A stretch of DNA of 64,000 bases from Candidatus Parcubacteria bacterium. Lineage in GTDB: Bacteria > Patescibacteriota > Minisyncoccia > UBA6257 > HR35. A program made the position numbers and the translations under genes. Position 1 is the first letter of the stretch, and each line of letters opens with the position of its first letter. This document shows positions 8,777 through 10,724 of this stretch, one piece after another. Location: assembly GCA_026004535.1 (NCBI GenBank), contig BPJI01000001.1:431424-495423 (forward strand), written 5' to 3'. The notes under the pieces were generated by a model. That model saw only the letters and a program-made list of their open reading frames with translations, was not told the DNA's origin and made no database searches.

Positions 8777-8826
8777 TTCAACTAACCGTCTAACACGATA
8801 TAGCATCTTAAACAGTCAAATTAATG
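8777..8826. repeat. left copy of a ~46-50 bp direct repeat flanking the pilin cassette
   Basis: caactaaccgtctaacacgAtatagcaTCttaaacagtcaaatTaat, which matches 10675-10724 at roughly 46 of 50 positions. Confidence 0.75.
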
Positions 8827-8977
8827 TTTACGACGTCGTACGTCGTAAAGTAAATATAACGACGTGCGACGTCCAGATATTGAGAAAATAATATTTAGGA
8901 CATCGCACGTCTTAAATTATTTTCCGTGTCCGATTCCGTTCATTTCGCCTTTAAATTTTAGCACAATTTTCCACATC

Positions 8978-9005
8978 TTGACATCATATTTTTTCTATTT
9001 ATAAT
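8978..9005 (+). promoter_or_regulatory. near-consensus sigma70-type promoter for the pilin gene
   Basis: TTGACA (8978-8983), 16-nt spacer, TATAAT (9000-9005), 7 nt upstream of the ATG at 9012. Confidence 0.5.
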
Positions 9006-9011
9006 TAAATT

Positions 9012-9332
9012 ATGAATAAAAAAATGAATAAATCCTTCACTTTAGTTGAACTTTTAGTTGTCTTAGCTCTAATAGCTATCTTAGCTACTGTCTTAATTGT
9101 TGTCATTAAGCCAGCAGATATCTTTAAAAGAGGTAGAGATAGTCAAAGAACTTCAGACCTTAAAAATCTTGAAAAAATATTTGACCTTATTCTTTTTGAA
9201 ACTCAAGGCACCTTTTCTGAACTTCAATATGCTTCCTCAAATGTTGTCTATATCTCTCTTCCTGATACTTCATCAACTTGTGGTCAATGGATAAGTCAAT
9301 TACCACAGCTTCCTTCAGGCTGGTCATATTGA
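9012..9332 (+). CDS. type IV pilin-like protein (prepilin N-terminal methylation domain); the ORF ends at an in-frame TGA
   Basis: N-terminus MNKKMNKSFTLVELLVVLALIAILA is a class III signal with the conserved Glu5. The same frame continues with no further stop into the LamG domain downstream. Confidence 0.7.
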   Translation: MNKKMNKSFTLVELLVVLALIAILATVLIVVIKPADIFKRGRDSQRTSDLKNLEKIFDLILFETQGTFSELQYASSNVVYISLPDTSSTCGQWISQLPQLPSGWSY

Positions 9333-10229
9333 TGCTCAGCAACTCCAACAAATATTGATGGTACTGGCTGGATTCCTATTCCTTTTAATCAATTTTCAAG
9401 CATTAATCTTTCTAGACTTTTCATTGATCCAATCAATAGACCTCCATATTACTATGCATTTGTTGCTGGAGGAAGTTATGCTCTCTATGCTCAATTAGAA
9501 AATCCTCAGTCTCAAGCCTCAAAAACAGACAATGATAATTATCCTCATCTATTTTCAGTAGGAACAAATAAAAGACTCATTGATCAAGCTCAAGGACTTG
9601 TAGGGTATTGGTCTTTTGATGAAGGAACTGGAAATATTGCTAATGATTATTCAGGAAACAATAATAATGGAACACTCTATAATGGTCCTCAATGGGTTGA
9701 TGGTAAAGTAGGCAAAGCTTTAAGTTTTGATGGAATAGATGATTATGTGGATAGCGGGCTAGATGTTAGTTGGAATAATGCCAACCCAGTTTCTTGGTCT
9801 TTTTGGGTTAAGCCCAATAATGTTGTCGATAGCAGTGCAGGTATCTTGGGGAAAATTTATCCAGGATGGGAATGGGCATTTTATCAGAGTGGAGCGGCGG
9901 TACATATGGTTTATTGGGATGCTTGGGGACGCCATGCGAATGGTATGGATGCGGATTGGAGTAGTGTCTTAACAGTAGGACAATGGATTCATTTGGTATA
10001 TACTTGGAATGGTTCTACCAGTAGATTTTATGCTGATGGGGCTCTCAAGATTACTCATACAGCAACTAATCCTTCGATAAATCAAAATAGAACTAATAAT
10101 GTAATGATTGGTGGCCATATATATGTCTGGGGTGATAAATTTTTCAAAGGCCTCATCGACGAAGTCCGAATCTACAATCGCGCTTTATCAGATGCAGAAA
10201 TTAAGGCATTATATGAAGCAACTAAATAA
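9333..10229 (+). CDS. LamG (concanavalin A-like lectin) domain; same frame as, and probably the C-terminal part of, the pilin gene
   Basis: No stop between 9333 and 10229 in the pilin frame. Carries LVGYWSFDEGTGNIANDYSGNNNNGTLYNGPQWVDGKVGKALSFDGIDDYV and GLIDEVRIYNRALSDAEI, typical LamG signatures. Confidence 0.65.
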   Translation, partial: CSATPTNIDGTGWIPIPFNQFSSINLSRLFIDPINRPPYYYAFVAGGSYALYAQLENPQSQASKTDNDNYPHLFSVGTNKRLIDQAQGLVGYWSFDEGTGNIANDYSGNNNNGTLYNGPQWVDGKVGKALSFDGIDDYVDSGLDVSWNNANPVSWSFWVKPNNVVDSSAGILGKIYPGWEWAFYQSGAAVHMVYWDAWGRHANGMDADWSSVLTVGQWIHLVYTWNGSTSRFYADGALKITHTATNPSINQNRTNNVMIGGHIYVWGDKFFKGLIDEVRIYNRALSDAEIKALYEATK

Positions 10230-10324
10230 CCATTCAGCTTCTCAGCTTCACAGCTTCAGAGAAAATATCGGGACATCGTATGTCCTTAATTTTTACTTTA
10301 GATAATATATAGTTTTTATCATGG

Positions 10325-10535
10325 TATTAACATCCAGTACTAATCCGGGTAGTATATCCGGTTTTCATCAGGGTAATTTTATATACTTTCCATCATGCTA
10401 ATATATCCAGTATTCATCCGGGTAGATATTTTTATCGGTATTCATCCGGGTAATCTATCCAGTAACAATCCGGGTAACTATATCCGATATTCATTAGGGT
10501 AGTATATCAGTTTTCTATCAGGGTAATCTAATTTT
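10325..10535. repeat. ccggat-word repeat element (inverted atccgggta orientation only)
   Basis: About ten (t/a)atccgggta(a/g) words at phased spacing. Confidence 0.8.
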
Positions 10536-10674
10536 TACGACGTCATACGTCGTAAAAATTAAATTTCCAATAAAAAAGACAAAAAGTCTAATGCTACGTA
10601 GCAATAGAGAATCAAACCAGTTTTTCATTTCTACTATCTAAATACGATCGTATCAAATTGGTAGAAATGATTTT

Positions 10675-10724
10675 CCAACTAACCGTCTAACACGCTATAG
10701 CAGTTTAAACAGTCAAATCAATTA
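10675..10724. repeat. right copy of the ~46-50 bp direct repeat flanking the pilin cassette
   Basis: ccaactaaccgtctaacacgCtatagcaGTttaaacagtcaaatCaat. Confidence 0.75.

Follow-up and report, generated by a model that had tools for sequence, protein, structure and literature searches.

The znu operon of a Candidatus Parcubacteria bacterium, which encodes a metal ABC transporter for zinc uptake, is interrupted between znuA and znuCB by an insert of ~1.85 kb that carries a type IV pilin gene with a C-terminal LamG domain. We analyzed this insert in a 64-kb stretch (hereafter, the window) of metagenome-assembled genome (MAG) KatS3mg096, a single contig of 556,583 bp whose ZnuA (GIW67578.1) and ZnuC proteins are identical to those of the window, and compared it with the corresponding loci of relatives. 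The insert is most readily explained as a non-autonomous pilin-adhesin islet at a recombination hotspot, with a 50-nt direct repeat at its junctions as the footprint of insertion, a reading to which we assign a probability of roughly 0.55. A previous interpretation, made from the sequence only, had described a mobile cassette bounded by att-like sites. The insertion and the junction repeats on which it was built stand; what does not hold up is the pairing of the palindromes and the reading of the CCGGAT array and the TGCTACGTAGCA motif as cargo. Homologous pilins at the same junction of relatives, one of them checked on its left side only, come without such repeats. A site-specific mobile cassette is neither proven nor needed.

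The insert lies at a recombination hotspot directly after znuA

Related contigs share the gene order phosphoglucomutase-like (PGM), YceG, ZnuA, ZnuC, ZnuB, a 116-aa gene and a TrwB-like ATPase. Seven related lineages (L006, L008, L009, L023, L024, L026 and L027) have a compact spacer of 4–40 nt between znuA and znuC, and the segment in the window is therefore a true insertion that splits znuA from znuCB, as had been claimed. It comprises positions 8826–10672 plus one copy of the repeat. Its left edge is the TGA stop codon of znuA, and ZnuA ends at the same residue as its homologs. At 35% G+C, the insert is richer in these bases than the znu genes (27%) and the window as a whole (28.5%). In one group of relatives, clade J, the compact spacers end in a shared -10 motif, and three of them are identical or one base apart; a -10 box near the znuC ATG is kept in relatives. 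A search of ZnuC homologs for strains with an empty site returned only the same two clade members and one more compact operon.

Comparison of close relatives revealed a recombination hotspot of this bacterial family immediately behind the znuA stop codon. L025 and L026, which come from different samples, share 1268 nt without a single difference as far as the final base of the znuA stop codon, beyond which they are unrelated (divergence at 6849/6850 in L025 and 1268/1269 in L026). Past this point L026 continues with a compact operon, and L025 with a PIN toxin-antitoxin pair and a pilin-LamG gene on the opposite strand. Similarly, the znuA genes of L006 and L007 are 97.7% identical, yet L006 is compact while L007 has a convergent, opposite-strand gene of unknown identity at the junction. 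Other occupants are an opposite-strand pilin-LamG gene in L004/L005 and an opposite-strand gene for an Ig-like protein in L003. Two further relatives lack a pilin and have longer spacers: 155 nt in L010, and an unrelated 272 nt in L002, the closest relative (ZnuA 88% identical).

These layouts could also be explained if both clades had inherited a pilin at this position that was then lost more than once and inverted on one occasion, with the repeat arising as a later local duplication. Consistent with this, both clades have homologous pilins, with their promoters, at the znuA-znuC junction, hairpin H2 (see below) and its flank are common to the window and L004, and the L010 spacer resembles a remnant left by gene loss. 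We nevertheless find this account very improbable given the short, closely similar spacers of clade J and the identical flanks of L025 and L026. Moreover, no single inversion turns one layout into the other, and the pilins of L004/L005 and the window are 45% identical overall (~65% in the N-terminal domain), as against 70% for ZnuA.

The junction between znuA and znuC is not the only occupied one. Several relatives have a hicAB pair between znuC and znuB (L004 13745–14289, L024 7595–8085 and L026 2024–2514), and the znu operon thus has two insertion-prone junctions. In L002, two adjoining open reading frames (ORFs) just 5' of znuA (8538–9368) carry pieces of a large serine recombinase, with Recombinase and Zn_ribbon_recom domains. 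Such decayed fragments occur 5' of znuA in L002 only, where the synteny of YceG and ZnuA is broken.

A 50-nt direct repeat is found exactly at both junctions

The near-identical direct repeats that were said to bound the insert are indeed present. Copies A and B (Table 1) are identical at 45 of 50 nt, share perfect blocks of 19, 7 and 14 nt and lie exactly at the two junctions; their 47-mer core (8779–8825 and 10676–10722) agrees at 43 of 47 positions. When searched with up to 3 mismatches across the window, which covers 11% of the genome, the repeat pattern had exactly two matches, and none in 100 shuffles, which argues against a common intergenic repeat. Past the repeat ends, the flanks align at a score of 22 where the shuffle mean is 21.7, so that the similarity stops at the repeat. 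A larger duplicated spacer extending beyond the 50-mer is thus not supported. Neither copy folds as RNA below the level of shuffles (-0.6 and -1.1 kcal/mol; copy A, z = 0.7), no tRNA or known RNA was detected at the repeat by ARAGORN or Rfam, and a permissive Rfam scan gave chance matches only, far below threshold.

The repeat has weak dyad symmetry around (G/A)(C/A)TATAGC (GCTATAGC) and represents a dyad element of the GTTTAAGATGCTATAGCATCTTAAAC type, in which the left half-site is degenerate, with symmetry kept at 14 of 22 positions as counted from the sequence. Similar elements are found in relatives. One resembling copy A lies in the 60 nt directly 3' of the L003 znuA stop codon (0 of 1000 shuffles reach its score), and a repeat-like palindrome is present in the pilin-less spacer of L010 (0–1 of 500 shuffles score as high), where it forms a near-perfect 26-bp dyad that folds at -17.5 kcal/mol. 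L004 has only marginal similarity at the same place. No repeat-like element was found in the spacer of L002 or at the left junction of L025, the right junction of which lies beyond the contig end. Because the element is quasi-palindromic, its versions in L003, L004 and L010 have no unambiguous orientation with respect to the repeat. Across 27 related loci, no further 47-mer was found except in L001, which contains the window's own copy B, and the relative in L010; viral contigs contained neither the 47-mer core nor the pattern of palindrome I5 (see below).

The related elements in L003, L010 and, marginally, L004 indicate that the repeat is a duplicated derivative of an older spacer element. 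Both copies in the window share the same departures from symmetry, and the duplication therefore postdates the decay of the palindrome. Thus, the repeat is a duplicate of a quasi-palindromic element that is native to expanded znuA-znuC spacers and was not imported. It is compatible with three origins, namely target duplication, crossover of a circle at the element, or attL/attR sites of a recombinase acting in trans, and does not require site-specific recombination.

Instead of marking an insertion, the two copies might be operators of a metal-responsive or other regulator, duplicated so as to control both the pilin and znuCB, with their position at the junctions being secondary. The dyad symmetry, the lack of an RNA fold in the window, the near-perfect dyad of L010 and the persistence of the element at this locus across clades whose ZnuA proteins are ~70% identical are what one would expect of an operator, and copy B lies ~80–125 nt 5' of the znuC ATG, similar to the L010 element. 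However, copy A lies ~150 nt 5' of the pilin -35 box with a hairpin of -27.6 kcal/mol in between, the left half-site is degenerate, and relatives with compact spacers do without such a site. The repeat does not appear to resemble Zur or AdcR boxes, and inspection by eye of the repeat and the palindromes against the dif and Zur-box consensus sequences gave no convincing match. We therefore judge the operator reading improbable.

The window pilin belongs to a mosaic family of paralogs

The insert was proposed to carry a pilin-LamG gene under a consensus promoter. The promoter matches the consensus at all 12 positions, and both domains were found: N_methyl (PF07963, E = 1.2e-7, above the cut-off; motif KS|FTLVELL, with Ser rather than Gly at -1) and Laminin_G_3 (PF13385, E = 1.1e-26, profile positions 1–151 of 151). 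What had been overlooked is that the frame is broken by an in-frame TGA at 9330–9332 (codon 107). Recoding of TGA, either under genetic code 4/25 or as selenocysteine, was rejected: znuA, yceG and znuC end in TGA at the positions where their homologs end, and all pilin paralogs and relatives have Arg at codon 107. In addition, three neighboring genes end in ATGA overlaps. As judged from these sequence features, TGA is a genuine stop codon in this genome, and the window copy of the pilin is predicted to be inactivated. Since all paralogs have Arg at this position, the nonsense codon is a recent copy-specific change or a polymorphism.

The genome encodes at least six pilin paralogs, i.e., the window copy and _085, _126, _171, _293 and _301 (proteins outside the window: P0061, P0073, P0180, P0181 and P0182), which we compared as protein sequences. 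In four of the other five, at least the first ~160 aa match the window protein at 97–100% identity. Among these, _301 (394 aa) is the only intact copy and is 100% identical over the first 240 aa, after which identity falls to 21–45% across the core of LamG and returns to 71% at the C-terminus; the other three share 97–100% identity over at least the first 160 aa and are truncated at 168–223 aa. Altogether, four of the five further paralogs are truncated, at 168–304 aa, and the LamG halves differ wherever they can be compared. In short-read MAGs of other Patescibacteria, 5 of the 12 pilin loci recovered start at a contig end, at residues 194–205, which is what a multi-copy 5' module would cause.

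Such a module raises the question of whether the insert was misassembled, because at least 4 copies in this genome are 97–100% identical in protein and short-read MAGs break at this very module. The KatS3mg096 data set was assembled from PacBio high-fidelity (HiFi) reads with an N50 of 10.5 kb (PMC9671151), so that a single read should cover all 1.9 kb of the insert. A short, independent contig (L001, run DRR290133, assumed to derive from the same sample as the MAG) matches window positions 10624–11739 exactly, and the repeat copies beside both znu genes tie the two ends together. An assembly artefact is therefore unlikely, and of all the explanations considered here we give it the smallest chance. 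L001 begins at window position 10624, exactly the left edge of palindrome I5, possibly because the population is heterogeneous farther left.

Two observations concern the ends of the pilin gene. The pilin -10 box ends 6 nt before the ATG, and a homologous promoter precedes the L004 pilin; -10-like boxes just 6–9 nt 5' of the ATG occur in both the pilin (9000–9012) and znuC (10786–10801), which suggests leaderless or nearly leaderless mRNAs. At the other end, short, genome-specific tandem repeats start within a few bases of pilin-LamG stop codons (window 10235–10258, L011 7350–7400, L012 11230–11255, L014 6250–6420 and L018 640–700).

Palindromes in the insert are pilin-associated hairpins and copies of dispersed repeats

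The two palindromes that had been described as paired are both present, at coordinates that differ from those first given by 1 nt for P1 and, to the left, by ~7 nt for P2. Rather than forming a matched pair of recombination sites, they are members of a pilin-associated hairpin family, GAC(G/A)T-N3-A(C/T)GTC. In 330 kb of sequence (the window and 26 loci), each of the 10 matches to this family has a pilin-LamG gene no more than 700 nt away, although only 12% of the bases searched are that close to one, and all matches outside the window lie 60–331 nt 3' of such a gene. A third, degenerate copy of the ACGACGT palindrome is found at 8895–8915. Two further features that had been counted as cargo, the CCGGAT array and the TGCTACGTAGCA motif, are both copies of repeats that are dispersed throughout the genome (see the last section).

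Within the left part of the insert, H2 and H3 form a hairpin of -27.6 kcal/mol (z = -5.4; 0 of 200 shuffles fold as well) that, with the U-rich tract behind it, likely serves as a znuA terminator. Hairpin H4, which starts 43 nt 3' of the pilin stop codon (10270–10286) and has a T-rich tail, is likewise the likely pilin terminator; hairpins of this type are found 3' of the pilin genes of L004, L011, L014 and L025 and, by eye, L018. H2 and its flank are homologous to L004 11196–11226, which is the 3' flank of the opposite-strand pilin in that relative. The left non-coding part (P1, H2 and H3) thus consists of hairpins of the pilin 3' type, which suggests that they are relics of an earlier occupant and hence that the site has turned over more than once.

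Palindrome I5, at the right end of the insert, recurs 3' of the pilin genes in L025 and L012. It is also present in L004/L005, where inspection of the sequence revealed a GC-rich hairpin at its center (L004 11066–11160), a layout that suggests nested insertion into palindrome centers. The side on which I5 lies flips with the orientation of the pilin, and I5 therefore belongs to the pilin unit. A run of four consecutive CGATCG-centered palindromes is found 3' of the pilin gene in L012 (11261–11543).

P1 and P2 are 84% complementary over 32 nt, which raised the possibility that the segment is invertible, in the manner of a shufflon, and that P1 and P2 are inverted recombination sites at which the pilin flips. 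The orientation of the pilin does vary between lineages. However, H2 and the adjacent CCGTG motif, which lie between P1 and the pilin, keep their orientation in L004 although the pilin there is reversed. No invertase is encoded nearby and, because the segment includes the promoter, its inversion would leave expression unchanged. An invertible segment therefore has hardly any chance of being the right explanation.

Origin of the insert

The insert encodes no recombinase of its own, in agreement with the initial claim. Pfam searches detected no recombinase domain in the insert or among ~50 window ORFs, and neither a TnpA nor an integrase among those screened (49 ORFs of at least 116 aa, with ~8 of 57 ORFs of at least 120 aa left unscreened). 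One alternative is a mobilizable cassette similar to the integrase-less cis-mobilizable elements (CIMEs), in which the repeats would be attL and attR of a tyrosine recombinase encoded elsewhere, and P1 and I5 would be accessory binding sites. Several results fit such a cassette: the 50-nt repeat is discrete, with perfect blocks, and sits exactly at both junctions; a strong palindrome adjoins each copy on its inner side; L003 and L010 have single copies of the element, as attB would be; and presence and absence at the znuA stop codon are cleanly polymorphic between L025 and L026.

Pilin insertions at the same junction nonetheless occur without the repeats. The L004 pilin locus, in which the gene is on the opposite strand, has no long flanking direct repeat, and the left junction of L025, which was the only one examined because the contig ends inside the pilin gene, lacks a repeat-like element. 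Inspection of the sequences shows that the junction nucleotides of these two insertions differ by several bases. Pilin loci elsewhere (L014, L015 and L016) have no comparable flanking repeats either. Furthermore, the two copies in the window are 10% diverged, the window ORFs screened include no recombinase, and the DNA inside the repeats is made of the host's own dispersed repeats. A trans-mobilized, att-bounded cassette thus appears unlikely, though its chance is appreciable, and the evidence favors an islet at a hotspot.

For the islet, we infer the following course of events. An ancestrally compact znuABC operon would have gained, at a junction prone to recombination, a pilin transcription unit of independent standing, which consists of a hairpin that probably terminates znuA, a consensus promoter, the pilin-LamG gene and a likely terminator hairpin behind that gene. 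Another pilin locus, in this genome or in one closely related to it, probably served as the donor, because the 5' half of the pilin is identical in protein to that of a resident paralog and because repeats dispersed through this lineage are also found in the non-coding parts. In the process, the 50-nt element adjoining znuA would have been duplicated, either by a single crossover of a circular intermediate at this element or by repair of a staggered break, carried out by host or trans-acting enzymes. With a hairpin after znuA and a putative terminator after the pilin, znuCB would have to start from a separate promoter, which may be the weak promoter-like site at 10768–10797 or the -10-like box near the ATG.

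Several points weigh against this account. Among the relatives, L003 and L010 have a single related element, yet none shows the textbook empty site in which znuA is followed by one repeat copy and then directly by znuC; the spacer of the closest relative, L002, is unrelated. The single elements in L003 and L010 also resemble an attB site. The repeat copies differ at 5 of 50 positions, which means that they either arose long ago or were not identical to begin with. The searches for repeat copies and for recombinases cover the 64-kb window, with the other 89% of the genome outside it. Finally, H2 and its flank lie inside the segment and yet look native in L004 and L010, which indicates more than one event.

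A broader possibility, which we regard as rather unlikely, is that the pilin-LamG genes of Patescibacteria form a recombinational system of adhesin variation. Each genome would maintain many copies, with a near-identical 5' module kept uniform by gene conversion and with interchangeable LamG modules. The 3' palindromes (the GACGT-N3-ACGTC hairpin and the CTACCAA..CGATCG..TTGGTAG element) would act as recombination signals, and copies would move between docking sites such as the znuA 3' end, leaving repeat footprints.

Relation to known systems

The insert behaves like a small islet at an integration hotspot that lacks an integrase, and the nearest named analogs are probably the CIMEs of Streptococcus, integrase-less elements flanked by att sites. 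The insert resembles CIMEs and similar islets in having direct repeats of tens of bases, a position at the 3' end of a conserved gene, no recombinase, and presence or absence among close strains. It differs in that no cognate integrase or parent element is known for it, the repeats are 10% diverged, sister insertions lack repeats where this can be checked, and the interior consists of the host's dispersed repeats.

At the level of the gene family, the locus has parallels to pilin variation systems. As in the pilE/pilS system of Neisseria with its Sma/Cla repeat, there are many pilin copies in a constant/variable mosaic that suggests gene conversion, conserved non-coding repeats lie just 3' of the pilin copies, and most copies are not intact. 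Unlike silent copies in Neisseria, every copy here keeps the constant N-terminal part, the window copy also has a promoter, and the variable part is a whole LamG domain. The R64 shufflon (PilV) and Moraxella Piv systems similarly combine a constant pilin N-terminus with alternative C-terminal adhesin parts and vary in orientation, but the insert has neither an adjacent recombinase nor clustered invertible segments, and its flanking motifs are at odds with an inversion.

Other mobile elements share fewer features with the insert. Integron cassettes likewise carry one gene between imperfectly palindromic sites and no recombinase; here, however, the repeat has no attC-like fold, the gene has its own consensus promoter, and there is no IntI among the ORFs screened and no attI or cassette array. 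Members of IS200/IS605 and their palindrome-associated derivatives resemble the insert in starting and ending with strong hairpins (here P1 and I5), but they make no target duplication, whereas the insert has 50-nt direct repeats, no TnpA among the ORFs screened and two hairpins that are unrelated to each other. Since P1 and I5 are unrelated, the insert has no terminal inverted repeats, and its duplication of 50 nt rather than 2–15 bp further sets it apart from transposons and MITEs.

Patescibacteria rely on type IV pili and live in attachment to host cells, and changes in a pilin adhesin therefore bear on host range. At this locus, strains that are almost identical differ by the gain, loss or reversal of pilin-adhesin genes at a single hotspot inside an operon. 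The HiFi-based complete genome gives a nucleotide-level view of this process and of a pilin family whose members are nearly identical in the 5' half and diverge in the lectin domain.

Features of the znu locus and insert

Table 1 Features of the insert, its flanking genes and related repeats in the 64-kb window
Feature	Position	Strand	Remarks
znuA, metal ABC substrate-binding protein	7930–8775	+	PF01297, E = 1.4e-63
Direct repeat copy A	8776–8825	+	Weakly palindromic, centered on TATAGC
Palindrome P1, TTTACGACGT-CGT-ACGTCGTAAA	8827–8849		10-bp stem, CGT loop; adjoins copy A; -11.3 kcal/mol
Long hairpin of two inverted ACGT-type hairpins (H2, H3)	8861–8911	+	U-rich tract to ~8925
Consensus sigma-70-type promoter, TTGACA-16-TATAAT	8978–9005	+	12/12 match
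Type IV pilin with C-terminal LamG	9012–10229	+	In-frame TGA; profile matches
CAGCTTCA, three copies	10235–10258	+	Directly 3' of pilin stop codon; tandem-repeat search
Hairpin H4 and T-rich tail	10270–10297	+	Putative pilin terminator
CCGGAT array, half copy	10318–10527	+	ATCCGG orientation only; genome-wide palindromic array repeat
Palindrome P2, AATTTTTACGACGT-CAT-ACGTCGTAAAAATT	10530–10560		14-bp arms, CAT loop; -16.6 kcal/mol, z = -8.1
TGCTACGTAGCA palindrome	10587–10608		Copy of dispersed motif; motif TGCTACGTAGCAATAG at 10592–10607
Palindrome I5, CTAC..ACGATCG..TTGGTAG	10625–10670		46 nt, right end of insert; adjoins copy B; -16 kcal/mol, z = -5.6
Direct repeat copy B	10673–10722	+	Two-copy pattern search
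Weak promoter-like site for znuCB	10768–10797	+	9/12 match
znuC, ABC ATPase	10801–11505	+	PF00005
znuB, ABC-3 permease	11502–12308	+	PF00950
CCGGAT arrays outside the insert	3371–3517, 12310–12604, 23703–23789, 26649–26752, 27212–27471, 37252–37386, 39874–39973, 52029–52144

Dispersed repeats extend into housekeeping genes

The CCGGAT array inside the insert is one of nine in the window. CCGGAT or ATCCGG occurs 90 times in the window, as compared to ~6.5 expected, and 82 of these occurrences fall within the nine arrays, which have a ~12-nt period, form blocks of 100–300 nt and are intergenic in 7 of 9 cases. The array in the insert consists of the ATCCGG half only (24-nt period, ~8 copies, 10332–10527). 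In each of the other eight, consecutive CCGGAT units give way to consecutive ATCCGG units, which makes the array a large palindrome; two of these arrays contain one odd unit. The same arrays were found in L004, L005 and L008.

The two arrays that are not intergenic lie in frame within housekeeping genes, which is the more surprising by-product of this analysis. One is in the gene for enolase (51541–52845, minus strand; array 52029–52144, residues ~232–276), and the other in that for an M1 peptidase (34721–37501, minus strand; array 37252–37386). Both translate to repeats of the LPG(Y/L/F)xPD type, and solved enolases do not align over residues 177–305 of the query. Full-text searches of a limited collection of papers returned no account of such in-frame palindromic repeats for Patescibacteria. 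The arrays are reminiscent of Rickettsia palindromic elements, which are likewise short, dispersed, intergenic palindromes that also occur in frame in housekeeping genes. They differ from these in their unrelated sequence, their internal 12-nt tandem repeat and their Patescibacteria host.

The TGCTACGTAGCA palindrome of the insert recurs at 45288 and 45929, on either side of a TrpR-like gene. There, (C)TATTGCTACGTAGCAATAG at 45288–45301 and 45929–45942 flanks an ORF at 45309–45818 (minus strand; PF01371, E = 5e-16), and this palindrome may be a candidate operator of the TrpR-like regulator.

A second dispersed repeat, GAACTNACNGAACTAACACAGAA, is present in 7 copies where 0 are expected (5456, 6471, 6678, 6723, 6768, 48082 and 50023). 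Within the PGM gene (5535–6947) it reads in frame as ELTELTQNLQKN repeats, and a peptide like ELTELTQNLQKN is also found in the enolase at residues ~165–180. The PGM gene additionally contains a GC-rich insert at ~5880–5970.

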